Of a DNA stretch of 64,000 nucleotides, positions 42,715-59,145 are shown piece after piece; within the stretch, counting starts at the first letter, position 1, and every line of letters begins with the position of its first letter. A program made the position numbers and the translations under genes. Source of the stretch: Alphaproteobacteria bacterium. GTDB lineage: Bacteria > Pseudomonadota > Alphaproteobacteria > Caedimonadales > UBA9215. Under the pieces are notes generated by a model, which made no database searches, was not told the origin of the DNA, and was given only the letters and a program-made list of their open reading frames with translations. The stretch lies in NCBI GenBank assembly GCA_024281375.1, contig JAJSAD010000020.1, forward strand, positions 7,070-71,069, in the 5' to 3' direction.

Positions 42715-42752
42715 AGAAGAGAAGAGGAAGAGAGGCCCCTTTTACAGCTCCT
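42715..42752 (-). repeat. 3'-UTR repeat family B, partial copy
   Basis: AGCTGTAAAAGGGGCCTCTCTTCCTCTTCTCTTCT resembles AGCTGTAAAGGGAGCTTCCTTTCCCTTCTCTTCT (minus strand, 62188-62221). Confidence 0.55.
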
Positions 42753-44226
42753 ACAGGGGATGCGAGTCAACATAATCAAGGAGTTCTTTGCAGGTCGTCA
42801 CTTTTTTATTAAGAACCATCCAAGCGATATTCTTAAAAATGCCATACTCATTCACATCTAAAACAGGTTCGGATTTCATAATATTTTTGTCAAAATCAAG
42901 CAAGTCTTTATTGTATAATTCCCAGCACACATTTAGAAATTCCGCTAGTAAAATATCACTTACGGGCCTCACAGGTGTCCGACTTCTTTCTGCCGACTTT
43001 GTCCATTTATCCACCCAACCATACATACTTATCTGTCGTCTTGTGTCATCTTTTGCGGCCCGTGCAAAATCAATAACGGTCACCTCTCCTGTGTTAAGGT
43101 GATACAGGAGATTTCGAACAGACATATCATGATGTGTCAGGCCATTTTCTTCAAAGTTAACAAGGGTTTTTAAAAGGGAACGAATGATAGTATATTGATT
43201 TTTTTTGCTTAGGTCAGAGAGTTTTCTTTGGAGACTGACTGTATTTTTAATAAAAGGTATAACAAGTTGAATAGAATTTTTTGTTACTTGTGAGAAGATA
43301 TGGTGGGTGACTTTTCCATAATCATGCCCCTCAAATGATTTCATAATAGCAATTTCATTCAGCATTTCTCGTTCAAGCCATGGAATTTTATAGCGTCCTG
43401 TATCAAGGAGCTGTTCTTTTAAAAGATAATTGTCTTTTCTATAAAGCACTCGAAAAGAAGCAGGACGGAACTCAATAATTTTATCAAAAATCACTTGTTT
43501 GCCTTGGATATTCACTGCTTTTGTGATTAAGACAAAATAGAGGGAGTTATTGCCATAAGTGCTTATCTTTTTGACGGAAATATGAGGAGAACATTTTTTA
43601 AATATTAAAAGAGGGTCAGGAATAAGATGATGAATAGGAGAAGATTTCTCCGGAAGCTCTATAAAAAACATCTTTGTTTTTGACACGAGACTTTCCATAA
43701 GATTTTGTAAATCTTGAAGTTTAATTCCTCTGCGGAGTAAACTTTCTATGTTTGTTAAAAAAATAATATCAAACTGATTGTCATGAAGATTTTGAACATA
43801 GGGGGGGTCAAAGGAAGCGAGCTCAAATTTTTGAACAGGTCTAAAGATGTCTTTTGCATTTCCCCCGCTCTTGAGGTGTATTAATGAGACCTCTTTATTT
43901 GTTAAACTGTTGTGTTTTGTAAAGGTTTCAAAAGCATTTTGTACATCTGTGCTTGTCCCAAGGGCTGTTGCAAGGGAACCATTCCTTGCAAAGAAATGAG
44001 TCAAGGTTACGCCATCCACCTCTAAGGTTCTTAAATGCTCCGGAAAGATACAAGATTCTTGTAAGATAGTAATAATACTAGTTTTATAGTGAGTCTCTTT
44101 AGGATTATAAGTTATATTATTAAGGGGGATATAGTTATGCTGACAGGCAAAACTTTTTAAAGCTATACATGGGAAAATCAGGAGGAGGAAGAGATTTTTT
44201 ATATATAATAACATGACTTTGTGCAT
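42751..44226 (-). CDS. Protein with C-terminal protein-kinase-like domain (possibly WbdD-like MTase-fold/kinase)
   Basis: LLKE, NEIAIM, HHDMSVRNLL, VIDFAR. Central FDIIFL...MFFIELP. Hydrophobic N-terminus. Confidence 0.7.
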   Translation of the reverse strand: MHKVMLLYIKNLFLLLIFPCIALKSFACQHNYIPLNNITYNPKETHYKTSIITILQESCIFPEHLRTLEVDGVTLTHFFARNGSLATALGTSTDVQNAFETFTKHNSLTNKEVSLIHLKSGGNAKDIFRPVQKFELASFDPPYVQNLHDNQFDIIFLTNIESLLRRGIKLQDLQNLMESLVSKTKMFFIELPEKSSPIHHLIPDPLLIFKKCSPHISVKKISTYGNNSLYFVLITKAVNIQGKQVIFDKIIEFRPASFRVLYRKDNYLLKEQLLDTGRYKIPWLEREMLNEIAIMKSFEGHDYGKVTHHIFSQVTKNSIQLVIPFIKNTVSLQRKLSDLSKKNQYTIIRSLLKTLVNFEENGLTHHDMSVRNLLYHLNTGEVTVIDFARAAKDDTRRQISMYGWVDKWTKSAERSRTPVRPVSDILLAEFLNVCWELYNKDLLDFDKNIMKSEPVLDVNEYGIFKNIAWMVLNKKVTTCKELLDYVDSHPL

Positions 44227-44351: not shown

Positions 44352-46619
44352 ATGTCAGCGTCCTTACAAAGACATCAACAATTTGAAAAACGTCGCCCCA
44401 TCCGCCTCGTGGCTGGTATCCTTTTTTTTATTTTATATGGCATTTACCTTCTATGGCGTATCAAAATTTTTAATTTAGACTCTATTTTCCTGTCGTCTCT
44501 TTTTTATATAATGGACCTTATTGGTTTTATTTTAGGCCTTATTATAATTTTTACAGCTTATACAGGGCGTCCCGATTATCCAGATGGACCAGCACCTGAG
44601 GGATTAAATGTTGATATTTTTCTCCCAACTTATAAAGAGCCAGTGGATATTATTAGGAAAACCATTGAAGCCGCCATTGCCATTGATTATCCGCATAAAA
44701 CCTTTGTTTTGGATGATGGAAAACGTCCTGAGATAAAAGAAATCGCGGAATCATTAGGGGCTATATACCGATCTAGAGAGAAGAATACTCACGCCAAAGC
44801 TGGTAATTTGAACTATGGCCTTACCCATAGCACAGCGGATTTTATTGCCGTTTTTGATGCAGATCATATTCCCCAGCGTGAAGCCCTTGATAAGCTTTTG
44901 GCCTTTATGGGGGATAGTCATGTCGCGATGGTTCAAACACCCCAAGATTTCTATAACATTAATGCCTTGCAGTTCATTGATGGTAAAAAAGACAGAACCC
45001 TTTGGAGCGAGCAAAGTTTTTTTTATAGTACTGTTCAAGTCTGTAATAATAAAGTTAATAGCACTACTGGTTTAGGAACAGGTGTTGCTTATCGACGTCA
45101 AGCCATTGATGAAATTGGCGGCATTCCAGAAGAAACCATCACGGAAGATTTACACACATCACTTCGTCTTCAAAAAGCAGGGTGGCTTACAAAATATATC
45201 AGTGAGGCTGTTGCCTATGGGTTAGCCGCTGTAGATGTTACAGAATTTTATACAACACGCAAACGGTGGTGCCATGGAAATCTTGATGCTATTTGTCAAG
45301 AAAATGTTCTTTTTTGCAAGGAACTAACCTGGCGACAAAAAATGGCTTACATGCGTGTTGCTCTAGCTAGTTTAGAGGGTTTTCAGCAACTCCTTATGGG
45401 AATTATTCCTCCCATCGCCCTTATATTTGGTTTGCAACCTTTTGAAATTACTTCTTTTAATGTCCTGATCGTTTTATTTTTTCCTCTCCTGGCCCACGTT
45501 TTATTACAAGAATTTTGTGGGGGCCGGTTTTGGCCGAGTACTCTTTTGTCTAAACTTTTTTTCCCCATTCATATTGTGTCGTGTGCGGCGGCCTTTGGCC
45601 GTAAAATGTTATGGACATCCTCTAGTAAGAATATAAAAGCACGCCATAATTACAGGCTTTTGGTTCCCCAAATCTCTATGGGAGTTATCAATTTGTTGGC
45701 TGTTATTTTTGGTGTTTGGCGCCTTTATCCTGACTTCAAAACCGGCCCGATTCTTGAAGCCTTTTTACATGTTTTTACGGGAGGGTACGTTGGATCTTCC
45801 TTTAAAGAGATTAATTTCTTTGCCGTTTTAAAGGATGGATATACCGTTGATCTTGTGATGGTTGCGGGTTTTTGGGCTCTCTTTAACGCGCTTAGCATTG
45901 CGATGTTAGTTTATCGAAGTCAGAAAAAAGTTTGGAATTCTGAAGAAGATTACCTGTTTCAAGTTGAACTTCCTCTAGAATTCCAGGTGGGTGAGTCGGC
46001 TAAAATTTATGCCATAACAAAACGGTGTTCTGTGAATTCTATAGAGTTCGACCTTGTGGGCAATAGTGATGATAGATATTCATTGGACAGCATTTTTGAA
46101 GTGACACTCTATACACCCTCAGGAAATTTTCCTATTATATTATCCTCTATTAAAAAAAGACAAAAAGGGGGGTATAAAGCTGAAATTGACTGGGTGAATA
46201 AGCAAGATAAAAAACATTTTGAGGATAATTTATATTCTATCTCCTGGCATCATGATCTTTATCATTACCAGGGATCTTATGAAACACCCTTAGAAAATTT
46301 CACGTCATTTTTTAAGTCTAAGAAAGAAAAAAAGATACCCCTTGTCAAACCTTTGTTGCTTGGAGCTAAAAATGTTGCAAAAAAATCACAGAAATTTGCT
46401 GCCTTAAAGCCCTCTATTGAAGACTTAAATACGTATACCCTTATAAGCTTTAATACTTTGAATGTAGGGGATAAAATAGAATTTGAAGAACTTACACAGG
46501 AGGGTGTGAAATACAGAAGAGCAGAAGTCGTAAATGAAATTCCCAAAGAAAAAACATCTTTTCTTAAAAAAAATCTAGACGGCACAATAGTACAGCACTA
46601 CACTATAGCTATTAGGTAG
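44352..46619 (+). CDS. Cellulose-synthase-like processive GT2 glycosyltransferase
   Basis: DIFLPTYKEP, LDDG, HAKAGNLN, FDADH, QTPQDFYN, TED, TRKRW (QxxRW variant). TM helices on both sides. Confidence 0.9.
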   Translation: MSASLQRHQQFEKRRPIRLVAGILFFILYGIYLLWRIKIFNLDSIFLSSLFYIMDLIGFILGLIIIFTAYTGRPDYPDGPAPEGLNVDIFLPTYKEPVDIIRKTIEAAIAIDYPHKTFVLDDGKRPEIKEIAESLGAIYRSREKNTHAKAGNLNYGLTHSTADFIAVFDADHIPQREALDKLLAFMGDSHVAMVQTPQDFYNINALQFIDGKKDRTLWSEQSFFYSTVQVCNNKVNSTTGLGTGVAYRRQAIDEIGGIPEETITEDLHTSLRLQKAGWLTKYISEAVAYGLAAVDVTEFYTTRKRWCHGNLDAICQENVLFCKELTWRQKMAYMRVALASLEGFQQLLMGIIPPIALIFGLQPFEITSFNVLIVLFFPLLAHVLLQEFCGGRFWPSTLLSKLFFPIHIVSCAAAFGRKMLWTSSSKNIKARHNYRLLVPQISMGVINLLAVIFGVWRLYPDFKTGPILEAFLHVFTGGYVGSSFKEINFFAVLKDGYTVDLVMVAGFWALFNALSIAMLVYRSQKKVWNSEEDYLFQVELPLEFQVGESAKIYAITKRCSVNSIEFDLVGNSDDRYSLDSIFEVTLYTPSGNFPIILSSIKKRQKGGYKAEIDWVNKQDKKHFEDNLYSISWHHDLYHYQGSYETPLENFTSFFKSKKEKKIPLVKPLLLGAKNVAKKSQKFAALKPSIEDLNTYTLISFNTLNVGDKIEFEELTQEGVKYRRAEVVNEIPKEKTSFLKKNLDGTIVQHYTIAIR

Positions 46620-46642
46620 AATAAAAAAAACAGGAATATCTC

Positions 46643-47398
46643 ATGAAAATAATAAATTTAAACAATTTTCTAGCCTCTCTCCTTCTCACAACGTCACTAA
46701 CAGCGACAGCGGCCTTAGCTGATGCTGCTCCCGATGGGCAAAACGATCTTGGTGTTGTTTTTGTTGGGGGCGAAGGACGGGCAAATTTGCTTTATGGTTA
46801 TATCGGAACGGTTATTTCCATTGATAGACATGACTTAGGCTCAGACGGTTGGCTTGTAAAAGCTGTTGCTGGGTATGGAGAATATAAATATTCAAAAGCA
46901 TCCGCAATTGATGGGAAGGGGCATCTACATGGTAAGGTAACGAATGCTGAAATAGAGATTGGTTATGAGTGGAAGTACAATCAACATCTTTTAAGTGTCT
47001 TCCTTGGTCCTGATTACCAACGCAATACGACGAATCACCATGATCCAGGCAATCTATCTCGTGGCACCAAGTGGGGTGGTCAAGCTGGTTTTGAATTTAT
47101 CACGGATCCGTCACAGTTCTTTAATGCTGAATTTGATTCATCCTACTCAACGGCTAATCGACACTTCCACGTCCGTCTTCGCCCTGGGTTTAAATTTTGG
47201 GACAGGGTTCGCTTTGGTCCTGAGGTAAGTTTTTCTGGAAGTCGCTCTTATAATGAACAACATGTTGGTGGATTTGTAACCGTTCTTATGGATGGCTGGA
47301 GTGCCTCAATTCATGGTGGTAATGCTTGGCATAAAGGTTTCCGTGCTAGAAGGAATAACGATGCTTACGTTGGTTTCTCCCTTGGTTTGATGTACTAG
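46643..47398 (+). CDS. bcsS: BcsS-like outer-membrane beta-barrel protein
   Basis: Signal peptide. DGW-V----GYG-Y-Y, DPGN--RG, YST----VRLRPG, GPE---G---Y. Terminal aromatic residue. Adjacent to the GT2. Confidence 0.7.
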   Translation: MKIINLNNFLASLLLTTSLTATAALADAAPDGQNDLGVVFVGGEGRANLLYGYIGTVISIDRHDLGSDGWLVKAVAGYGEYKYSKASAIDGKGHLHGKVTNAEIEIGYEWKYNQHLLSVFLGPDYQRNTTNHHDPGNLSRGTKWGGQAGFEFITDPSQFFNAEFDSSYSTANRHFHVRLRPGFKFWDRVRFGPEVSFSGSRSYNEQHVGGFVTVLMDGWSASIHGGNAWHKGFRARRNNDAYVGFSLGLMY

Positions 47399-47487: not shown

Positions 47488-48045
47488 ATCCAAGTTCGTG
47501 TTTCTAGGCGTCAACTTTTAAAGACCCTTGGTGTCGTTGGTCTTGGTGTGTATGTGTACAAGTACGTTGATACATTTTTTTTCACAGATCAGAAATTATC
47601 CTTTGACCTTCCTGAGATTGACGATCTTGAATATCCCTCCCTTGAAATTTTTATAGCCCTCTCTCAGCTCGTTACATTTCATAACAACCTTGATGAAATA
47701 AGTGCTCAAAAACTTTTTAAGATTTTTCTAGAAGAACCGGGCGGGGCGGATAATATCATAAAAACGTATGGTTCCCTTAAAAATTTAATAGGAGAAGGAA
47801 CAAAGCAAGGTCACCTATTAGAGGGTATTAAAACAGGGAATATTGGAAAAACTGAGAAGTGGTTCGCGCAACATCTTCTAACAACTTGGTATACGGGAAT
47901 ATATTATGCTGAAGGTCAAGAGCCCGTACGTCTTCTTCATGAAGACGCTCTCGTTTGGAAGCCTCTTAAAGGGCTTTTGCCTATTCCCTTTGTTGAAAAT
48001 ATAGACTTTGGCCTTTGGGCCAAACATCCTAGGGATCTTGCGTAA
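47488..48045 (+). CDS. Sugar dehydrogenase small subunit (FAD-SLDH-like, Tat substrate), apparent ATC start
   Basis: F--LSQLVT, WYTG, AL-W, G-WA--P. In-frame upstream SRRQLLK Tat motif. GGGAG RBS at 47476. Confidence 0.75.
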   Translation: MQVRVSRRQLLKTLGVVGLGVYVYKYVDTFFFTDQKLSFDLPEIDDLEYPSLEIFIALSQLVTFHNNLDEISAQKLFKIFLEEPGGADNIIKTYGSLKNLIGEGTKQGHLLEGIKTGNIGKTEKWFAQHLLTTWYTGIYYAEGQEPVRLLHEDALVWKPLKGLLPIPFVENIDFGLWAKHPRDLA

Positions 48046-48050
48046 ATAAA

Positions 48051-49634
48051 ATGAAAGAAATCCAATCTGATATTGTGGTTATTGGTTCTGGTATAGCGGG
48101 AGCAGTCGTAGCTTATAAGCTTGCTTTAAAAGGACTAGATGTTCTGATTATAGAAGCAGGTCCTCGTATTGATACCGAAGACGTCAGGAAAAAGTTTGCA
48201 ACAAGTCCCCATATGCATCATAACGCAGGTTATCCTGATGAGGTCCATGCGCCTATTCCAACTTGGACCAAGCGTGATACTTTCTTAGCAATGGGGTCTT
48301 CAAAATTATTGGTTCCTGAATATCTTCGCTGTGTCGGCGGAACAACATGGCATTGGGATGGTGTGACCCATCGTTTTTCTCAAAGTGATCTCTCCTTGAA
48401 AACAACCCATGGGGTTGGTGTAGATTGGCCGCTGACTTATGAGGATTTGTCGCCTTATTATGATGAGGCAGAAAAAGAACTAGGGGTTGCGGGGCATAGT
48501 GAGGGAGAAAGTGCAACATTCCCAATGAAACCAACACCAGCCTCTTATTTAGAAAACTGGGTTCATAACAAACTCAAAGGATCATCTCATGCTCTATCTG
48601 TTTGTCCTATGGCGAGAAACTCAAAGGACTACGATGGGCGTTCTCAATGTCAAGGTTTCAGCACCTGTTCATTAGTTTGTCCCTCAAAAGCCAAATATAC
48701 AGGCGTTGTTCATGTTGAAAAAGCCGAAGAAAAAGGGGCGCATCTTCTTGCTAATACCCGTGTCGATCAGATTATTGTGGGAAAGGATCAAAAAATATCA
48801 CACCTTATTGCAAGAAAACCAGACGGCGCGCCTTTTAAAATCAAAGGGAATCAATTTATCCTTGCGGCTAATGCCCTTGAATCTCCCCGGCTTCTTTTGA
48901 ATTCGGCGACAGAACAGCATCCCCATGGTGTGGCAAATTCTTCTGGATATGTTGGTCGCAATTTAATGCTTCATCCTTCTATTATTGCAAATTATGTTGT
49001 GAAGGAAGATGTTTTCCCCGGGCGAGGCCCTAACATTCATTTTGTGTTAGATAAATATCGAGAGACTCCTTCTCGTACTTCCTACAGTGGTTTTCTTATT
49101 CATTTGTTAAACACCTTTAATGTATATGCTGATTATCATACTCATTTTTTGGATAAAATTTATCCTCCGGCTTTAGATCTGGAAATTGCTGAGCGTTATC
49201 GTAAAAAAATAGAGTTTAATAGTTGTATGGAAATGCTTCCAAATCCAGAAAACATTTTAACGCTTAACACGTCGGAAAAAGATTCTGCTGGGGTGCCAAA
49301 AATGCATATTAAACTGTCTTATTCTGATTATGAGAAAAGATCATTCATAGCCTGTCAAAGTATTTATCAAGACATTGGGGTGCATCTTGAGGCTACTCGA
49401 ACTGAAATATCCGATATTTCTACCAATCATTCTCATCTCATGGGGACTCTTACTATGGGAGATGATTCTAAAAAATCTGTTGTCGATAAATACGGCAGAA
49501 GCCATGATCACCCAAATCTCTTTGTAGTGGGGTATTCTCTTTTCCCAACATCAACACCCGTTAATCCGACGTTGACTATCGCTGCCTTAAGTCTTCGAAC
49601 AGCTTCGGAAATTATTAAAGAGTTGAAAATATAG
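48051..49634 (+). CDS. GMC-family FAD sugar dehydrogenase large subunit
   Basis: GSGIAG, VGGTTWHW, WP--YEDL-PYY--AE-ELGVAG, C-G---C---CP, VGRNLM-H, H-MGT--MG, NPTLTIAAL. Confidence 0.92.
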   Translation: MKEIQSDIVVIGSGIAGAVVAYKLALKGLDVLIIEAGPRIDTEDVRKKFATSPHMHHNAGYPDEVHAPIPTWTKRDTFLAMGSSKLLVPEYLRCVGGTTWHWDGVTHRFSQSDLSLKTTHGVGVDWPLTYEDLSPYYDEAEKELGVAGHSEGESATFPMKPTPASYLENWVHNKLKGSSHALSVCPMARNSKDYDGRSQCQGFSTCSLVCPSKAKYTGVVHVEKAEEKGAHLLANTRVDQIIVGKDQKISHLIARKPDGAPFKIKGNQFILAANALESPRLLLNSATEQHPHGVANSSGYVGRNLMLHPSIIANYVVKEDVFPGRGPNIHFVLDKYRETPSRTSYSGFLIHLLNTFNVYADYHTHFLDKIYPPALDLEIAERYRKKIEFNSCMEMLPNPENILTLNTSEKDSAGVPKMHIKLSYSDYEKRSFIACQSIYQDIGVHLEATRTEISDISTNHSHLMGTLTMGDDSKKSVVDKYGRSHDHPNLFVVGYSLFPTSTPVNPTLTIAALSLRTASEIIKELKI

Positions 49635-49735
49635 CCCTTCCCAAAAAGTCCCAGACGTCGTTATTGCGCTCCTCACCTATAAAAGATAGGCGTCGTCGCT
49701 GATGCCTAGACTGGAACCTTTTTGAAACGACTATA
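49630..49735. mobile_element. Correia-like MITE, copy B (106 bp)
   Basis: TATAG...CTATA ends. Core CCCAGACGTCG...GCGCTCCT...GTCGTCGCT...GCCTAGACTGGAAC shared with copies A and C. Confidence 0.8.
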
Positions 49736-50600
49736 TAACTTGGGCAATGATGTCACTGGTATCAATGGCATTAGAGGCATGGGGAATGGTGTTGCAGGTG
49801 ACAACGCTCTCTACTCCGGATTCAAGGAGCGCTTCATAAGCACCCTTGGCAAAGACAGCATGAACACCGATGCAAATGGGCGGTTTCATTCCTGATTTTT
49901 TGAGGTGAGTTATGGTTTCAATCATGGTCCTTGCCGTTGAGATAATGTCATCAATGAGCACCGGTGTATGGTCTTTATAGAGCTCAACATCGGGAACAGA
50001 AACCTCAACATCTTGATCTCCATGGCGAATTTTCTTGAGGACAATAAAGGGAGCATTAGCTTGTTGAGCCACATCAGAAACCCATTGTTCACTTTCTTCG
50101 TCAGGCCCAATAAGGACGGGGTGGTCAATATTTTTATTAACCCACGTGGCGATGCTATGGGCTGCATGCAAAGCCTTTGCGGGGATTTTATAAATTTCAT
50201 CAAGGGTTTTATGGCGATGAAGGTGAGGGTCGATGGTGATCAGCCAATCAATATGCTGGGATAAAAAGGCTGCAAAAATAGTCGAGGTAATAGCTTCTCC
50301 CCCATGGAACCGTTTATCTTGACGCATGTAGCCGAGGTAAGGAGCCACAAGACCAACGCTTTTTGCCCCGAGTTCTTTTGCTACTTTTGTAAAGAACAAC
50401 AGAGCCATCGCTTTTTTGTCAGGATGATCCAATCCACACAGGAGGATGACTTCATGATTTTTTACATCTGTGTTGAGTTTGACAAAGGATTCTCCATCAG
50501 GAAAATGTCGAATGGTAACATCACCCTGGGTGCATTTTAATTTCCCCGCGAGGTTTTTGGCAAGCTCTTCATAGCCGGGAAAAGTGAATAAAAGAGTCAT
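49731..50600 (-). CDS. Ribose-phosphate pyrophosphokinase-like protein (short type found beside NMP phosphorylase)
   Basis: FPDGE, PYLGYMRQD, DPHLH, GPD, IDDIIST--T. Confidence 0.92.
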   Translation of the reverse strand: MTLLFTFPGYEELAKNLAGKLKCTQGDVTIRHFPDGESFVKLNTDVKNHEVILLCGLDHPDKKAMALLFFTKVAKELGAKSVGLVAPYLGYMRQDKRFHGGEAITSTIFAAFLSQHIDWLITIDPHLHRHKTLDEIYKIPAKALHAAHSIATWVNKNIDHPVLIGPDEESEQWVSDVAQQANAPFIVLKKIRHGDQDVEVSVPDVELYKDHTPVLIDDIISTARTMIETITHLKKSGMKPPICIGVHAVFAKGAYEALLESGVESVVTCNTIPHASNAIDTSDIIAQVI

Positions 50601-50604
50601 AAAG

Positions 50605-52110
50605 CTACTCCTGAATTGTTATAATTTCATCATTATGGTTTAAATAATCAAGGGCATAATCGAGTTCCCCGGGGGAATTTGCGTGAATGGTGAAAAGGGG
50701 GGTATCTTGTGCAACTTTTGACCCAAGGGTGATGTGTAGATCGAGACCAGCAACTTTTGCAAAAGGGGCCCCAGCTAATTTTGCAAGGCGGGCGATTTCT
50801 CGGTTATCTATATGGGTCACACATCCCTTTTTCTCAGCTTTACAAATATGCGTAAAAGGAGCTTTTGGAATGTCTCTCATACCGCCCTGAGCTTTGCAAA
50901 TACGTTGGAATTTATCCCAGGCTTGCCCCTTATCGAGTATTTCAGTTGCGATTTTGAGGCCCTTACCCTTTTGAATATCAGGGGAGAACTCGATGATTTG
51001 CCCTGCAAGGAGAAGAGCGCGTTCTCGTAAATCTTGGGGGGCCTGTGCCTCATTTTTTAAGACTGAAACAATGTCACGGGCCTCAAGGGCGGGCCCTATA
51101 CCTCGCCCAACGGGTTGAGTTCCATCACTAAAAATGACTTTCACAACAATGTCAAGATTGTTTCCAACGGACTCAAGGTATTCTTTTAAGAGATTACCCA
51201 TTTCCGTTGATCTAACTTTCGCTGTGGGACCAATGGGAATATCAATCAAAACGTGGGTAGAGCCTGCGGCTATTTTCTTGGACAGAACAGAAGCAACCAA
51301 TTGTCCTTCGCTGTCAAGGTCGAGGGCTTTTTCTACCCGTATTAAAATATCATCAGCAGGACTCAGCGCAACGGACCCTCCCCATGCAATACAGCCCTTT
51401 TCTTGTTGAACAATATGTTGCATTGTAGCGATATCTAATTTAACAGGGGCCAGAACTTCCATGGTATCTGCCGTTCCTGCAGGGGAGGTGATGGCTCGTG
51501 AAGAGGTTTTGGGCATGGTGAGTCCAAAGGCGGCTACAATAGAAACAAGAATAGGCGTGGTTCTGTTGCCTGGCAGACCGCCAACACAATGTTTATCAAC
51601 AACAATATCAGAGGGCCACTCAAGGCGATCGCCCGCCTCTACCATGGTTCTCGTTAAAGAAACGATTTCTTGAGTGTCAAGGCGCCCCCCGGCACAGGCC
51701 GTTAGAAAAGAGGAGATGTGAATATCAGAGTAACGTCCTTTCGTAATATCTTTAATAATAGAAGAAAATTCTTTTTCTGAGAGGGTGTTGCCATAAATTT
51801 TTGATCGTACAAAGCTTAAAGAATGGATGGGTCTTGCATGGGTGACTTGGATTTCATCCCCTTCATGGGCAGCCAAGAGGCACCACGCATGTTCAGAAAG
51901 AGACGCTTTCCCAGGTGGTAAAATTGATGAGTCAATAATATTCAGGGTCGCGATAATAGAGCGCTCTCCCAGGGTGACGCGCACGCGGGCATGGACTTCA
52001 AAACCTTCTGCCAAACAGATATGGCAATCTTTTCGCATATAAACAACGGATTCTTTATACGTATCAATACCAAGATATCGTAGATGAAGGGGGGAGTGCT
52101 CAAAGGTCAT
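50605..52110 (-). CDS. AMP phosphorylase-like thymidine phosphorylase family protein
   Basis: N-terminal extension (LGIDT...), DKHCVGGLPGNRTT, KTSSRAITSPAGTADTME, ASVLSKK, QPVGRGIGPALEA. ATG 52110 overlaps the upstream TGA. Confidence 0.93.
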   Translation of the reverse strand: MTFEHSPLHLRYLGIDTYKESVVYMRKDCHICLAEGFEVHARVRVTLGERSIIATLNIIDSSILPPGKASLSEHAWCLLAAHEGDEIQVTHARPIHSLSFVRSKIYGNTLSEKEFSSIIKDITKGRYSDIHISSFLTACAGGRLDTQEIVSLTRTMVEAGDRLEWPSDIVVDKHCVGGLPGNRTTPILVSIVAAFGLTMPKTSSRAITSPAGTADTMEVLAPVKLDIATMQHIVQQEKGCIAWGGSVALSPADDILIRVEKALDLDSEGQLVASVLSKKIAAGSTHVLIDIPIGPTAKVRSTEMGNLLKEYLESVGNNLDIVVKVIFSDGTQPVGRGIGPALEARDIVSVLKNEAQAPQDLRERALLLAGQIIEFSPDIQKGKGLKIATEILDKGQAWDKFQRICKAQGGMRDIPKAPFTHICKAEKKGCVTHIDNREIARLAKLAGAPFAKVAGLDLHITLGSKVAQDTPLFTIHANSPGELDYALDYLNHNDEIITIQE

Positions 52111-53465
52111 GGCAGTTCCTCTGATTGCAAATATTCTGGAATAACAACATGCCATCCAAATTCTTCTTTAATCTTTTCTTTCAGAGAAAGAGCAGCGTCG
52201 TGTTCGCCATGGGTGATAAAAACTTTTGTCGGCGCTTTCTGAAAATTTCTAAGCCATGTCAGGATTTCACCATAGTCAGCATGGGCGGATAAGGTGTTGA
52301 GATTTTCAACGCGCGCACGTACGGGGTGAAATTGACCATGGATTTTTATTTCTTTTTCTCCTTTAACAATGCGGTCGCCTCTCGTGCCACCGGCCTGATA
52401 ACCTGTGAAAAGAATCGTGTGCTTAGGGTCTGTGATAAAATGTTTGAGGTGATGGAGGACGCGGCCTCCTGTTGCCATACCACTTGCTGAGATAATAACG
52501 CTCGGCATGGGGGAGGTGTCTAAGCGTTTGGAGTCTTCAACGGTTCGAACGTAAGTTACAGAATCACAAACGTCTCGGCATTTGTCTTTAGAAAGTCGCT
52601 GTTCATTTTTAAAGCGACATAGAAGTTTTGTGGCACTGACTGCCATGGGGCTATCTAGGAAAATAGGGAGATCAGGAATGCTACCGGATTTTTTAAGTTC
52701 CTGGATATAATACAGCATCAATTGGGCGCGACCAACGGCAAAAGCAGGCACAACAACGGTTCCTCCTTTGGCGGCTGTGCTGCGAATAACCTCGCCAATT
52801 TCTTCGAGGGGATCTTTGGTACTGTGGAGACGATCTCCGTAAGTGGATTCAATGAGGAGGTAATCGGTATGTTGGAGCTGAGCCGGGGTTTGCATAATGG
52901 GGTCATATTGGCGACCTAAATCCCCTGAAAAGGTAACGGTGCGATTGCCGCCAGAAAGGGCAATGAAGGCTGATCCTAAAATATGGCCGGCTCGGCTCAT
53001 GGTGAAATGCAGATCGTCATTCAAGTAAAAGGGTTGGCCGAATTCGAGGGTGTAGAATTGAGCAAGGGAAAGACGCGCTTCTTTTTCTGTGTAAAGAGGA
53101 AAGGCAGGTTTATGTTTGGTGTAACCATATTTATTCGCGCGCCTGGCATCTTCTTCTTGGAGATAACCACTGTCAGGTAAGAGGATTTTGCAAAGCTCAT
53201 AGGTCGCTTCAGAGCAATAAATTTTTCCTTTGAAGCCTTGTTTAACCAACAAAGGAACATAGCCGCTATGGTCGATATGAGCATGGGTTAGAATCACAGC
53301 ATCAATGTCTTGAGGATCAAAGGGAAGGGCGTTCCAGTTTCGCAAGCGTAGCTCTTTATATCCTTGAAAAAGGCCACAATCTACGAGAACCTTCATGCCG
53401 TCATGGTCAATGAGGTATTTGGATCCCGTAACTGTTCCTGTTGCTCCTAAAAAGCTAATTTTCAT
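52107..53465 (-). CDS. MBL-fold beta-CASP nuclease
   Basis: TVTGSK, DCGLFQG, THAHIDH, AGHILG, SGDLG, ESTYG, FAVGR, SGMATGGR, SAHAD, HGE. Confidence 0.95.
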   Translation of the reverse strand: MKISFLGATGTVTGSKYLIDHDGMKVLVDCGLFQGYKELRLRNWNALPFDPQDIDAVILTHAHIDHSGYVPLLVKQGFKGKIYCSEATYELCKILLPDSGYLQEEDARRANKYGYTKHKPAFPLYTEKEARLSLAQFYTLEFGQPFYLNDDLHFTMSRAGHILGSAFIALSGGNRTVTFSGDLGRQYDPIMQTPAQLQHTDYLLIESTYGDRLHSTKDPLEEIGEVIRSTAAKGGTVVVPAFAVGRAQLMLYYIQELKKSGSIPDLPIFLDSPMAVSATKLLCRFKNEQRLSKDKCRDVCDSVTYVRTVEDSKRLDTSPMPSVIISASGMATGGRVLHHLKHFITDPKHTILFTGYQAGGTRGDRIVKGEKEIKIHGQFHPVRARVENLNTLSAHADYGEILTWLRNFQKAPTKVFITHGEHDAALSLKEKIKEEFGWHVVIPEYLQSEELP

Positions 53466-53481
53466 AATAAGATGTCCTTTT

Positions 53482-55677
53482 TTATAACTTAACCTTCTTA
53501 AGGCGGCTGGCATTTAGAATGACTGATAAGGAGCTAAAAACCATGGCAGCGCTGGCAATAATGGGGTTGAGGAGAATCCCGAAGAAAGGATATAAAATAC
53601 CCGCTGCAATGGGGACGCCCGTTGCATTATAAATAAAAGCGAAAAAGAGGTTCTGGCGAATGTTTGTCATAGTTGCTTGGCTGAGACGCCTTGCCCGCAC
53701 AATACCGGTGAGGTCTCCTTTAACGAGGGTTACTTCTGCACTTTCCATGGCAATATCAGCACCCGTTCCCATGGCAATACCCACATCGGCTTGAGCTAAG
53801 GCTGGCGCATCATTCACGCCATCTCCCGCCATGGCAACCTTATAGCCTTCGCTTTGCAAACGTTTTACCACTTCGCTTTTTCGTTCTGGGAGGACGCCCG
53901 CTTCGATTTCGTCAATTTCGAGTTTTCCTGCAACAGCGTTGGCAGTTTTTTCATTATCTCCCGTCAGCATTACCAGACGAAGACCACTTTTACGGAGGTC
54001 ATGGAGGGCCTGGGGAGTTGTTTTCTTAATGGGATCGGCAACGCCAATGAGACCCGCCAGTTTATGCTCGATCATTACCAGCATCACCGTTTGTCCTTGG
54101 GCTCTGAGGTCATCAGCTTGTTTGCTGAGGTCTGAGGTTGCAATTTTAAGGGTCTCGAGGAGCTTATCATTTCCCAAAGCGACATGTTTGCCCTCAACAA
54201 ATCCTGCAACACCTTTCCCTGTAAAAGACTCAAAGTCTTTTGTTTTTGATAAGGTGAGTTTCTTGTCTTTTGCTCCCTTAACAATGGCATCGGCTAGAGG
54301 GTGTTCACTGCCTTGCTCTAAGGAAGCAGCGAGTTGCAAAAGCTCATCGGCATCTTGTTCTTTTTCTGTAATGACCGAGGTGAGTTTAGGTTTGCCTTCA
54401 GTGAGCGTCCCTGTTTTATCGATGACAAGAACATTAATTTTCTCAAGGATTTCGAGGCTCTCGGCATTTTTAATCAGGATACCTGCTTGGGCACCTCGAC
54501 CAGTGCCAACCATGATAGACATCGGTGTTGCAAGTCCAACGGCGCACGGGCACGCAATAATTAAAACAGCCACCGCATTAATAAGGGCATAGGATAAGGC
54601 CGGTTCTGGTCCCCAAATGCCCCAAATGATTGCTGTTGCAATAGAAATAGCGACGACAACGGGAACAAAGTAGCCAGCAACCATATCCGCCAGCTTTTGG
54701 ATGGGGGCTCGGCTGCGTTGAGCTTCCGCCACCATATGGACGATTTGCGAGAGGAGAGTTTCGCTTCCCACTTTTTGAGCCTCCATAATAAAGCTACCGG
54801 TTTGATTAAGAGTACCTCCCGTCACAGGGTCTCCAGTGGATTTTGATGTGGGCATGGATTCACCGGTGATCATTGATTCATCGATGCTACTTGATCCTTC
54901 AAGGATAATACCATCGAGGGGAACGGAGTCTCCTGGGCGTACGCGCAAATGATCTCCGGGGACGACGTCATCAAGGGGCACCTCTTCTTCGCTCCCATCT
55001 TTTCGAATGACGCGCGCTGTTTTGGGGGCGAGATCTAAGAGGGCTCGAATGGCATTATTGGTCTGAGAGCGAGCTCGAAGCTCCATGACTTGTCCCAACA
55101 TCACAAGGGTGATAATCACGGCGGCTGCTTCAAAATACACATCAACCAAGCCATTGTTCATACGCATGGCATCGGGAAAAAGCCCTGGAAAAAGGGCGGC
55201 GATCACACTATATAAGTAGGCAACACCCGTTCCAAGGGCAATGAGCGTGAACATATTGAGATTTCTGGTCACCACAGAAGACCAGGCTTTTTTGAAAAAG
55301 GGAATAGCGCCCCACAGCATCACGGGGGTTGCCAGGGCAAATTCAATCCACAGAGCCATCGTTGAAGAAATATAAGGCTCAAGAGGTTTTCCGGGAAGAT
55401 GATCGAGCATGACCAGTAAAAGGGTCGGAAAGGATAAAAAGCTACAAATCCAAAAACGCCGCGTCATATCAATGAGTTCTGTTTTATCCTCTTCGGCACT
55501 CACCCCTTTAGGTTCAAGAGCCATGCCACAAATAGGACAGTCCCCGGGCCCGATTTGTTCGATTTCGGGGTGCATAGGACAGGTATAGATTGTATCGGCG
55601 GGAAGGTCATCATCAACCTTAGTTTTTGAAGGGTGAGGGTGGGGGGGAGAGGAGTGGCAGGCACTGTGATCTGTCAT
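53482..55677 (-). CDS. copA: Copper-translocating P1B-type ATPase
   Basis: YTCPMHPEI...[34 protein letters not shown]. Confidence 0.95.
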
Positions 55678-55926
55678 GGTTATGAGCTTCCTGTTTAAGT
55701 TCCTCTTTCATAATACCATAAATGTTAGAATTATAGTTGGAAGTGTCTCTTAAATTTTTGTAATAGAGCCCTTATGGTAATCGCCCCCCCTTTCAGGGTT
55801 CGTGATAAAAATACAACATTCCTCTTAGAATGGATAATTTATTTTTTTTCTATTCCTTCAATCAGTAGACTTGTCAAAAACAATTGTCCTCTTTTTTGGA
55901 GCAAGCACCAACTATATATCAGCATT

Positions 55927-56215
55927 TATTTCGGAAAAATTGGATATCAGCGTCGCTTTATTGAAGCCGGCCTGACGGCTTTTTCCATTGATTATGGTCA
56001 TTATGAAAATCTGTTTTTTGATACACGCCCTGGTTTCGAAAAAGATAAATACAGAGGCAGAACCGTTGGTATTGCTCTTATTCAATATTTGGACCGTATT
56101 GCAACAGAACTCTATGTTGGCTTTAGAAATTATGAACTTAAACACCCCGCTCTAAGAGAAGCTCGCTATAAAGATGTGAAAGCTGTCATGGGAGGGATTG
56201 CGCGTCAGATTCTAA
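55927..56215 (+). pseudogene. C-terminal remnant of a porin-like beta-barrel gene
   Basis: YFGKIGYQ...AFSIDYG...IQYLDRIATELYVGFRNYEL...KAVMGG, then a frameshift to LRVRF* (TAA 56213). No signal peptide or N-terminal part. Confidence 0.6.
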
Positions 56216-56326
56216 CTCCTGACGCCTCTTTTAAACTGTGGCCAAAGAGCTTTTATGGCAAAACTGAATAGGTATAGTTGTTTTCTTAAAATAAGGTAGA
56301 CTGAAGAAAACGATTTTTAAGAGTAT

Positions 56327-57162: not shown

Positions 57163-57732
57163 ATGTCTAATCAACATCCCATTGCCAAAGCGATTTTTGA
57201 GGCCCTTGAAACCAAAGGGTGGATTCATCTGACTCTGCATGATGTTGCCGAAAAAGCTGACATAAGCCTTGAGGAACTCCATAAATGTGCGACCTCAAAA
57301 GAAGACCTGATGGCTGTGATGATCTCCTACCTAGAAGAACAAACTCTGATCCACGTGGATCAGAGCGGAGAAGGGACTGCTGAAGACCATTTGTTTGAGG
57401 GGTTGTTCGCACGTTTTGAAGCAGCCGACCCTTATAAAAAAGCCATCGCACGATTATGGCAGGACTTTAAGGGCTCACCAACTCTCGTGCGCCCTTTTAT
57501 TCCTCAATTTCTTGACGCCTTAAAAACAATGGGCAAAGAGGGGGGGCTTGAGTTTGAGGGGCCTTTGGGAGCGATTCAATTGCGAGCCTTTGGGTTTATT
57601 TATTTAAGGCTTCTTTATGTGTGGTTGGCGGACGAGTCCCCTGATCTTGCAAAAACGATGTCTGAAACCAATAGGGTTGTCACAAAATACATCCCCTGTC
57701 TCTTTAATCCCTGCAAGATTCTTGACGTATAG
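57163..57732 (+). CDS. TetR/AcrR-like alphaproteobacterial protein
   Basis: N-terminal HTH (GW--LTL-DVA--A-ISL-EL), RFEA--PYK, W--D-SPDLAKTM. Confidence 0.7.
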   Translation: MSNQHPIAKAIFEALETKGWIHLTLHDVAEKADISLEELHKCATSKEDLMAVMISYLEEQTLIHVDQSGEGTAEDHLFEGLFARFEAADPYKKAIARLWQDFKGSPTLVRPFIPQFLDALKTMGKEGGLEFEGPLGAIQLRAFGFIYLRLLYVWLADESPDLAKTMSETNRVVTKYIPCLFNPCKILDV

Positions 57733-57861: not shown

Positions 57862-59145
57862 ATGAAGAATATAAGTATAATAGCATTACTAACGGCACTT
57901 GTGTTTGTACCACAAGAGACAAGGGCTCTGAGTGATGCCGGTGTCGCTACAGCAGATGCAAATGTCGCCCGCCAAGTAGAAGCGAGAGCAGCGGCCGTGG
58001 AAGTCACCGCCATTGATGCCCATTTAACAAGAATAAACCTTCCCCTGAACGATAAAAACCGTGCGGCGGTAGCAGATACCGGCGGTTCTGCTAGGGGAGT
58101 GCCTGCAGAAGTGGTTCTTTTAAAAGTTTTGCAAACGGATGGGGTACCTGGTATTGACGCTACTGATGATGATCAGCAAGGGGATGCGCGTGCGCTCATA
58201 GGCAATATTGATGTCGCAGCCGTCACAGCCGAGAATCTTCCCTTGGCTGCTGCTCTTATAGATCATGCTGGGGGTGTCGCAGCCGTCACAGCCGAGAATC
58301 TTCCCCGCGCTGCTGCTATTCTTGGTGCTGGCTTGAATCCAGTACACATAACAGACGCCAACCTGGAGTTAGCTGGTGCTCTTATAGATCATGCTGGGGG
58401 TGTCGCAGCCGTCACAGCCGAGAATCTTCCCTTGGCTGCTGCTCTTATAGATCATGCTGGGGGTGCAGCAGCCGTCACAGCCGAGAATCTTCCCTTGGCT
58501 GCTGCTCTTATAGATCATGCTGGGGGTGTCGCAGCCGTCACAGCCGAGAATCTTCCCCGCGCTGCTGCTATTCTTGGTGCTGACTTAGATGTAGGAGAAG
58601 TCACAGCCGAGAATCTGGAGTTAGCTGGTGCTCTTATAGATCATGCTGGGGGTGCAGCAGCCGTCACAGCCGCCAATCTCCGCCTTGCTTCTGTTATGGC
58701 TGATGCTGGCTTGAATCCAGTACACATAACAGCCGCCAACCTCACTGCTGCTGCGCTATTACAGCCTATGATTAATTTAGGTTTTTTCAATAGAGATAAG
58801 TTGGGTGCTGTTTTGAATGCGACTAGAGTCAGTGATGAGGTTCGAGATGCTGTAGTTTGGGCCATTAACACTGGATTTAGAGGGCAGCCCCCTGGAACGA
58901 TTCCATCAGGAGTTGCCATTTATGATAGCAATACAGGGGGTGGGAATCCTCGCTTTATTGTAGAATTAGGTGCTGTTCCCTTTAGTGCGACTGCTGGACG
59001 ATTTAATGCTGCAAATCGATTCCTTGTGGAACGAGCAGGCGTAGCAGGTATGGAATTGAACATTGGGGATCGCATTGTTTTTACTGATCTAACGGATAGT
59101 GCAGCCCCCTTTATCACTCTTGTGAATGGTGCAAAAGTTCCTTAA
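57862..59145 (+). CDS. Secreted Ala-rich protein with 21-aa tandem repeats
   Basis: Signal peptide MKNISIIALLTALVFVPQETRA. About 9 repeats of AAVTAENLPLAAALIDHAGGV type. Confidence 0.85.
   Translation: MKNISIIALLTALVFVPQETRALSDAGVATADANVARQVEARAAAVEVTAIDAHLTRINLPLNDKNRAAVADTGGSARGVPAEVVLLKVLQTDGVPGIDATDDDQQGDARALIGNIDVAAVTAENLPLAAALIDHAGGVAAVTAENLPRAAAILGAGLNPVHITDANLELAGALIDHAGGVAAVTAENLPLAAALIDHAGGAAAVTAENLPLAAALIDHAGGVAAVTAENLPRAAAILGADLDVGEVTAENLELAGALIDHAGGAAAVTAANLRLASVMADAGLNPVHITAANLTAAALLQPMINLGFFNRDKLGAVLNATRVSDEVRDAVVWAINTGFRGQPPGTIPSGVAIYDSNTGGGNPRFIVELGAVPFSATAGRFNAANRFLVERAGVAGMELNIGDRIVFTDLTDSAAPFITLVNGAKVP
58216..58760 (+). repeat. 63-bp coding tandem repeat array
   Basis: GCAGCCGTCACAGCCGAGAATCT and TGCTCTTATAGATCATGCTGGGGGTG recur with a 63-bp period. 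Confidence 0.92.

Follow-up and report, generated by a model that had tools for sequence, protein, structure and literature searches.

In a 64,000-nucleotide stretch of DNA from an Alphaproteobacteria bacterium of the order Caedimonadales (GenBank assembly GCA_024281375.1, contig JAJSAD010000020.1, positions 7,070 to 71,069; the whole stretch is called the window below), four genes between positions 49731 and 55677 lie in one tightly coupled row, in which the gene for the copper pump CopA is followed by those for a putative beta-CASP ribonuclease, a nucleoside monophosphate (NMP) phosphorylase-like protein and a second, archaeal-type ribose-phosphate diphosphokinase (the Prs-like protein). Judging by their sequences and by where their relatives are found, the last three genes (the triad) appear to represent a real, mobile stress module carried on plasmids and stress islands. 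We tentatively read the complete row as a stress operon that joins a metal-export arm, CopA, to a metabolic arm, the mobile module for RNA and nucleotide salvage, an interpretation to which we give slightly less than an even chance. What is new here is the direct CopA-led arrangement in the genome of what resembles a nucleotide-importing endosymbiont, the apparent presence of two paralogous copies within one genus, and the use of a published effect of Cu(I) on Prs as a rationale for the arrangement. The features are the following.

55678..55773, minus strand: 96-nucleotide intergenic region 5' of copA, presumed promoter region (by position only)
53482..55677, minus strand: CopA, Cu(I)-exporting P1B-type ATPase, 731 amino acids (Pfam, TIGR01511, 3RFU, motifs)
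52107..53465, minus strand: beta-CASP metallo-beta-lactamase ribonuclease-like protein, 452 amino acids from the ATG at 53465 (Pfam, TTHA0252)
50605..52110, minus strand: AMP/NMP-phosphorylase-like protein of the 'thymidine phosphorylase family', 501 amino acids (NF003338, TIGR02645, 4GA5)
49731..50600, minus strand: second, archaeal-type (class III-like) ribose-phosphate diphosphokinase paralogue, 289 amino acids (NF005537, TIGR01251, 4TWB)
49635..49730, no strand: 96-nucleotide region between the convergent prs-like and GMC oxidoreductase genes, presumed operon end (by the convergent gene ends)

The open reading frames (ORFs) and the sequence confirm the original prediction of four co-oriented genes with very short junctions. 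Sixteen nucleotides separate the copA stop codon (TAA, 53484-53482) from the beta-CASP ATG, the beta-CASP and phosphorylase genes overlap by the sequence ATGA at 52110-52107 (a -4-nucleotide junction), and four nucleotides lie between the phosphorylase TAG and the prs-like ATG. The program-made ORF list gives longer alternative starts for the beta-CASP gene (53513) and the phosphorylase gene (52155); we prefer the short ones, because the genes of congeneric genomes align from residue 1 and the same 16-nucleotide spacing between the CopA and beta-CASP genes is found in one congener, G002. With its order repeated across phyla and on plasmids, the arrangement is far beyond chance. A scan for consensus promoters and terminators, which included the copA upstream region and the operon end, gave nothing above shuffled controls, so that we infer the operon, and its co-transcription with copA, from spacing and conserved order. 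No public sequencing runs carrying the operon are listed, RNA runs included. The GC content of the operon (46.6%) falls within the top 0.6% of 6-kb windows, and GC at third codon positions is ordinary (49th to 89th percentile); this compositional evidence is weak, and we do not argue from it for a recent arrival.

Profile searches and comparisons with proteins of solved structure uphold the identities that had been proposed for all four gene products. CopA contains the Pfam domains E1-E2_ATPase, Hydrolase and HMBD, passes TIGR01511 (599.1 bits, cut-off 397) and has as its closest solved structure the Legionella-type copper efflux ATPase 3RFU (911 bits); its translation shows the N-terminal HMBD motif, CPC, DKTGT and GDGVNDAP. 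The nuclease matches Beta-Casp (123 bits), RMMBL, the RNA-specificity domain (71 bits), and Lactamase_B (60 bits), and its translation displays an HxHxDH motif (HAHIDH) and other His/Asp motifs, which we take to be those that bind metal. Its closest solved relatives are the ribonuclease TTHA0252 of Thermus thermophilus (266 bits), Cas14 of type VII CRISPR systems (240 bits) and archaeal CPSF (198 bits). With the first two it has a beta-CASP core of about 430 residues in common; unlike them, it lacks a KH domain, other extra domains and a CRISPR context. Assignment of the nuclease to Cas14 itself was rejected, since the match to NF045584 reaches 391.7 bits (cut-off 800) and covers profile positions 1-425 of 612.

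The phosphorylase passes NF003338 (PRK04350; 694.6 bits, cut-off 434) and TIGR02645 (598.3 bits, cut-off 434.6), and its closest solved relative is the Thermococcus adenosine monophosphate (AMP) phosphorylase 4GA5 (336 bits, compared with 150 bits for pyrimidine nucleoside phosphorylase, PyNP). The alignment with 4GA5 spans query residues 43-490 and the Pfam Glycos_trans_3N bundle begins at residue 100, so that part of the N-terminal extra domain is aligned, and the motif KTSSRAITSPAGTAD of the window's protein aligns with KTSSRAITSAAGTAD of 4GA5. A classification as the thymidine phosphorylase DeoA was discarded (TIGR02643: 143.6 bits, cut-off 570.7). Thus the N-terminal extension and the motif are indeed those of the AMP-phosphorylase branch and not of DeoA, as had been claimed. 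The protein shares this domain with the AMP/NMP phosphorylase of Thermococcus kodakarensis (PDB 4GA4-4GA6), and the ligand-site motifs of the two are near-identical (e.g. KTSSRAITS-AGTAD). The archaeal enzyme splits AMP, cytidine monophosphate and uridine monophosphate into base and ribose-1,5-bisphosphate (R15P), according to the excerpted text of two reports (PMC9700705, PMC8376864). The archaeal NMP shunt (pentose bisphosphate pathway) goes on via R15P isomerase and type III RuBisCO, neither of which was found in the window's genome, whereas the bacterial phosphorylase gene is coupled to a Prs paralogue and often also to a beta-CASP nuclease. Among known systems, the opening step of the archaeal shunt is what the module would resemble most in its working.

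The Prs-like protein passes both NF005537 (PRK07199; 403.7 bits, cut-off 322) and TIGR01251 (207.1 bits, cut-off 113) and consists of the Pfam domains Pribosyltran_N and Pribosyltran. Its closest solved relatives are the archaeal Prs proteins 4TWB (131 bits) and 1U9Y (122 bits), with class I enzymes at about 93 bits, and it has the FPDGE, RQD..F..GEA and DD..ST..T motifs in common with these class III archaeal synthases of phosphoribosyl pyrophosphate (PRPP). By every sequence test it thus appears to be a class III-type ribose-phosphate diphosphokinase. Unlike the archaeal class III enzymes, it belongs to an NCBIfam subfamily of its own (PRK07199) and always occurs alongside a canonical Prs. 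A Gly-to-Arg change in the PRPP loop (DDIISTART) was considered as a special feature and dropped, because this loop position varies within the Prs-like family. A prediction of a complex between the phosphorylase and the Prs-like protein, made with a 47-row alignment for each, gave a score of 0.00 (mark 0.32), which says nothing either way on binding.

The distribution of the module was studied in 400 genomes sampled evenly across the phylum, together with the window's own genome. The phosphorylase family exceeds its cut-off in 46 of these 401 genomes and in 32 of 212 genera. We examined about 10 kb on either side at all 48 places outside the window's genome; some contigs end nearby, so that the counts are lower bounds. 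A Prs-like gene is adjacent to the phosphorylase gene (gap of at most 400 bp) at 37 of the 48 places and within 10 kb at 39, and a beta-CASP nuclease gene lies within 1.5 kb of it at 16. A separate set of 10 close loci, from which an eleventh locus at 27% identity was left out, gives a Prs-like gene adjoining the phosphorylase gene in eight and an adjacent nuclease gene in seven. Homologues of the phosphorylase with 62-78% identity are spread over widely separated lineages, the closest named ones being labelled Holosporales and Alphaproteobacteria, and the carriers include host-associated Holosporales-like bacteria, Coxiellaceae, Legionella, Criblamydia, Dependentiae and Vampirovibrionales.

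The phosphorylase tree falls into two well-supported halves (support 100). The half with the window comprises 23 rows, 19 of them with a nuclease, mostly in the order nuclease-phosphorylase-Prs, and holds all the CopA-linked rows; the other half comprises 24 rows, 20 of them without a nuclease. The tree of the Prs-like proteins has the same deep split (support 99) and the same nearest neighbours of the window, and both trees place the window closest, outside its own genus, to a Vampirovibrionales genome, a member of another phylum. Because the trees are congruent and the pairwise identities of the two proteins correlate (r = 0.87), the phosphorylase-Prs pair has been inherited and transferred as a unit. 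The triad therefore does recur, as originally predicted, in a conserved order across phyla and on plasmids, but the conserved core is the pair of phosphorylase and Prs, to which the nuclease is an addition typical of the window's clade.

Within the window's order, the phosphorylase family was found in no genus but the window's own (three of four congeners, compared with none of 18 other genomes). The triads of these congeners (L029:7113-13142, and likewise L030 and L031) are 71-79% identical to that of the window and paralogous to it. They lie 44 nucleotides behind a gene of the DASS-type Na+/sulfate symporter family and ahead of a gene for a YgjP-like metallopeptidase. CopA orthologues of 81-89% identity are present in three of the four congeners, away from the congener triads. 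One of these genomes, G002, encodes a CopA that is 89% identical to that of the window (L117:8937-12620) and, after the same 16 nucleotides, a nuclease that is 90% identical to the window's, more so than the nuclease of G002's own triad (77%). Behind this CopA-linked nuclease there is no intact phosphorylase or Prs gene; what follows is a shared ATGA and a 38-codon frame beginning with MTFE, and downstream of it a gene for a membrane protein with repeated G-S-LPE motifs. The frame has its first four codons in common with the window's phosphorylase and matches it at 9 of 20 residues (45%, E = 7), so that it may be a remnant of a deleted phosphorylase-Prs pair, for which the match is suggestive only. 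The CopA/nuclease junction predates the separation of G002 from the window's genome, in which each of the three genes is single-copy. From these sequences the genus appears to hold two paralogous copies, linked to CopA in one case and to DASS in the other, which have been lost differentially. The CopA-led operon that had been proposed is thus found in the window but is not a general rule, as three congeners have their triad behind a DASS transporter, and just one of these has, in addition, CopA with a beta-CASP gene behind it.

As for mobility, the phosphorylase gene occurs on at least 127 plasmid records, including plasmids of Sphingobium, Variovorax, Ralstonia, Cupriavidus, Legionella, Criblamydia and Pontibacter. 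Among seven annotated plasmid loci, a copper or heavy-metal P-type ATPase stands beside the module in four (Legionella, Ralstonia, Methylophaga and Agrobacterium), another P-type ATPase in two (Criblamydia and Sphingobium), and neither in the one from Pontibacter. A Pfam tally of the 165 flanking ORFs within 5 kb of 20 loci of the window's clade, from which two of the three congener loci were excluded as near-duplicates, places P-type ATPases at the top of both lists as the commonest neighbour family (9 of 165 ORFs, three of them of P2 type). Among the 18 places with a phosphorylase at least 50% identical to that of the window, five have a CopA-like gene (at least 40% identity, at least 550 amino acids) less than 10 kb away and in every case on the same strand; none of the other 30 places does. 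The expectation that the triad recurs near metal-resistance genes on mobile islands is therefore borne out as a tendency, by the plasmids, the P-type ATPases and the CopA-like genes, but not as a rule.

A rearranged version of the module is found on an Agrobacterium plasmid (L037:2192-10488), inside an island of copper-oxidase and cytochrome genes, where a heavy-metal ATPase gene, a Prs-like gene, a 790-amino-acid gene, a gene for a metallo-beta-lactamase (MBL) hydrolase and the phosphorylase gene follow one another in this order. The 790-amino-acid gene is annotated as 'xylulose 5-phosphate 3-epimerase'; by size and position, we take it for a phosphoketolase.

A mobile, plasmid-borne and patchily distributed set of genes that includes a nuclease resembling the type VII Cas14 core (by its NCBIfam score and by the 240 bits to the PDB entry) could also be imagined to act against phages or competing plasmids, by depleting nucleotides or cutting nucleic acids. 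This we regard as very improbable. The Cas14 score is less than half of the cut-off, with the C-terminal part missing; searches against PADLOC-DB gave only short, weak matches (LmuA, E = 5e-4; PRTase_III-A, E = 5e-3); and the neighbours of the module are genes of metal, ion and low-oxygen stress, not defence genes. The regulation by FixK2 of the Bradyrhizobium operon described below likewise points to physiology.

The genome that contains the window (1.85 Mb, 97.6% complete) speaks to what the module could be doing there. It encodes three TLC-type nucleotide transporters (537-592 bits, on contigs C14 and C40) as well as RpiB and transketolase, and no PurF over the cut-off was found in it. By its gene content, the host looks like a nucleotide-importing intracellular bacterium, perhaps an obligate nucleotide parasite. 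A search of the genome for a second gene of the thymidine phosphorylase family found none. The original prediction had noted the absence of RuBisCO and R15P isomerase from the window; this holds, and neither RuBisCO (PF00016) nor the IF-2B/R15P isomerase family (PF01008) has a match anywhere in the 97.6%-complete genome. Nor does the genome contain a PhnN over the cut-off, the best match reaching 40.4 bits (cut-off 156).

In such a nucleotide importer, the pair could conceivably run in the anabolic direction, with PRPP from the Prs-like protein feeding the phosphorylase-like protein as a phosphoribosyltransferase, or with base and R15P being joined to NMP, so that nucleotides are rebuilt from bases. 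The phosphorylase family shares its fold family with anthranilate phosphoribosyltransferase, and weak matches to TrpD models extend over the N-terminal half of the window's phosphorylase. The three TLC transporters and the lack of a PurF hit would suit this idea, and because only four type I phosphoribosyltransferase-domain hits occur in the genome, two of them the Prs genes, the second Prs has few other clients. The reverse reaction of an NMP phosphorylase is, moreover, discussed for Thermococcus in the excerpted text of PMC9700705. We nevertheless hold the anabolic direction to be hardly probable, as the ligand-binding motifs follow AMP phosphorylase closely, the TrpD match reaches 45.8 bits with a cut-off of 199, and a nuclease partner suits degradation better than synthesis.

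The other direction leads to the question of what becomes of R15P. One answer, close to the original prediction, is that the nuclease produces NMPs, the phosphorylase converts them to R15P, and the Prs-like protein adds a phosphoryl group to the 1-phosphate of R15P, with PRPP as the product, which would bypass the canonical Prs by a PhnN-like reaction on a Prs fold. R15P would otherwise be a dead end, as R15P isomerase, RuBisCO and PhnN were not found. The phosphorylase and the Prs-like protein are co-inherited, and the latter never replaces the canonical enzyme: each of the 48 carrier genomes that were checked, among them some of 1.2-3 Mb, keeps a canonical, high-scoring Prs. In the window's genome, it is encoded separately on contig C8 (293.7 bits; 26.8% identical to the Prs-like protein), so that the Prs-like protein is not the housekeeping PRPP synthase, and the case in which it would have been the genome's only Prs does not apply. 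Four residues, H128, R129 (directly after the conserved His126), E169 and W173, are invariant in all 47 Prs-like sequences but are not found in the two aligned archaeal Prs proteins. Together, the invariant residues and the constant company of a canonical Prs hint that the Prs-like protein is not simply a spare Prs. It does, however, keep all Prs hallmarks and passes two curated Prs models, which makes a diphosphokinase acting on ribose 5-phosphate the simplest reading, and the chemistry would have to differ, with a phosphoryl transfer that releases adenosine diphosphate in place of a diphosphoryl transfer that releases AMP. We know of no Prs-fold enzyme that turns R15P into PRPP. The only known enzymatic link of this kind, according to the excerpted text of PMC9700705, is PhnN of E. 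coli, whose protein family differs from that of the Prs-like protein. Overall, we consider the conversion of R15P to PRPP by the Prs-like protein improbable. The bolder proposal, that the pair is a route from NMP through R15P to PRPP that is independent of the canonical Prs and has been wired to CopA, as the metabolic half of copper resistance, in bacteria dwelling within amoebae and other hosts because Cu(I) poisons the normal Prs, seems to us quite improbable.

In the stress-operon reading that we tentatively favour, each enzymatic step is modelled on the nearest characterised relatives. CopA would pump Cu(I) out of the cytoplasm, and the TTHA0252-related beta-CASP enzyme would degrade RNA towards 5'-NMPs. 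None of the results points to damaged RNA as its substrate, the example given in the original prediction. The phosphorylase would interconvert NMP and phosphate with base and R15P, in either direction, and the class III-like Prs would supply PRPP, with which bases could be salvaged again. The module would be used when the supply of ribose phosphates or PRPP fails, be it under low oxygen or under copper stress, and its placement behind CopA would reflect that copper, like oxygen limitation, threatens the PRPP supply and that the operon may thereby contribute to copper protection.

The copper side of this reading draws on work in Staphylococcus aureus. In the excerpted report (PMC10249872), purified Prs was 7-fold less active at 2 uM Cu(I) and inactive at 5 uM; under copper, PRPP fell to about half, and higher prs expression lowered copper sensitivity. 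This inhibition of a Prs by Cu(I) offers a reason for the copper link of the module.

The low-oxygen side draws on Bradyrhizobium diazoefficiens, in which bll3117 (phosphorylase family), bll3116 (Prs) and bll3115 (MBL hydrolase) are induced by microoxia at both protein and transcript level (excerpted text of PMC6515984). A second list groups the three genes into a single operon that has a FixK2 box at -74 and is expressed less in fixK2 mutants (excerpted text of PMC9104804). The likeness to the window, by annotation names, extends to the same three families; the genes are arranged differently (phosphorylase, Prs, MBL hydrolase), and the excerpts of the two papers mention no CopA and propose no function for the operon. 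Similarly, and again likened by name, the genes of the low-oxygen lxa locus of Burkholderia cenocepacia include one for a cation ATPase and one, induced 30-fold, for a 'metal-dependent RNase' (excerpted text of PMC3721108). Our literature search found no other expression data for the triad.

These data also suit an explanation in which the module serves energy supply under low oxygen and RNA and nucleotides are burnt for ATP, with ribose passing through pentose phosphates to phosphoketolase and acetate kinase, and in which CopA is co-resident on stress islands without functional coupling. The excerpts place the Bradyrhizobium operon in the same table as a phosphoketolase-acetate kinase operon, and genes for phosphoketolase, acetate kinase, universal stress proteins, alcohol dehydrogenases and PPK2 stand beside the module on plasmids of Criblamydia, Sphingobium, Agrobacterium and Ralstonia; phosphate acetyltransferase and ATP-cone proteins are further recurrent neighbours. 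Acetate kinase occurs three times among the 98 neighbours of one tally list, and P2-type (non-copper) ATPases are frequent neighbours as well. It is, however, hard to see what a biosynthetic Prs would do in a catabolic route, short of working in reverse, and near the triad of the window neither phosphoketolase nor acetate kinase is encoded. A search for FNR/FixK-type boxes (TTGAT-N4-ATCAA, one mismatch allowed) found none upstream of copA or of the nuclease gene; the window as a whole contains 10 matches, compared with 5.1 expected, one of them inside the phosphorylase gene. We therefore regard a purely energetic role as unlikely.

Several observations weigh against the stress-operon reading itself. 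CopA linkage is a minority trait, present at 5 of the 48 places, and the congener triads are surrounded by housekeeping genes (for rRNA modification and lipoate ligation) with no CopA nearby, so that the link to CopA may be hitch-hiking on stress islands. As G002 keeps only CopA and the beta-CASP gene together, it may also be the nuclease alone that is tied to CopA, if anything is. Neither the promoter and box searches nor a search for MerR-type regulators revealed a copper-responsive regulator or operator upstream of copA; with a Methylophaga plasmid protein as query, the latter search returned only a 25%-identical match on another contig, and none adjoins copA. Five of the 48 carrier genomes (G104, G176, G260, G357 and G392, with the loci L092, L098, L111, L091 and L112, respectively) are without any Prs-like gene at E <= 1e-20, which means that the phosphorylase can stand without its usual partner. 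In the window's genome, R15P is without a recognisable consumer, as R15P isomerase, RuBisCO and PhnN are all missing above the cut-offs, and this leaves a gap in the pathway. The phosphorylase reaches 469.4 bits with the AMP_phos equivalog model TIGR03327, below the cut-off of 535, and since both this cut-off and the pathway context fail, the module falls outside the archaeal NMP shunt proper. The copper-Prs rationale was obtained with a class I enzyme in a single, distantly related organism. Finally, we found no assay of an enzyme from this bacterial phosphorylase/Prs-like family in the literature, and no paper that assigns the triad a function or names it together with copA or stress genes.

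The surroundings of the operon in the window contain further genes. On the plus strand at 55774-56271, 57163-57732 and 57862-59145 are ORFs of 165, 189 and 427 amino acids without a Pfam match, the first of which is divergent from copA over the 96-nucleotide spacer at 55678..55773 that the two have in common. On the other side, a small-subunit-like gene (FAD-SLDH family) and the GMC oxidoreductase gene (47548-49634, plus strand) converge on the operon end. They are preceded at 44352-47398 (plus strand) by a gene for a family 2 glycosyltransferase of 755 amino acids and a BcsS-like gene (cellulose biosynthesis protein S), a pair that makes up a small locus for exopolysaccharide in this reduced genome. 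Still further away, a minus-strand ORF of 491 amino acids (42751-44226) has weak C-terminal matches to eukaryotic-type protein kinase, RIO and Kdo-kinase domains, with Pkinase below its Pfam cut-off and RIO1 and Kdo marginally above theirs. Eukaryotic-type kinases are often effectors in intracellular bacteria.

The module matters first by its reach, as relatives of the archaeal NMP phosphorylase are present in about one in nine of the sampled genomes of the phylum (46/401), nearly always in the company of a PRPP synthase of their own. If the phosphorylase-Prs pair handles R15P without RuBisCO, it would constitute a new branch of bacterial pentose bisphosphate metabolism. If the placement beside P-type ATPases is functional, metal-resistance islands would carry genes for metabolic repair besides pumps, and the finding from a single organism that Cu(I) targets PRPP synthesis would be extended. 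Given the number of host-associated bacteria among its carriers, the module may matter for life inside phagocytic hosts.

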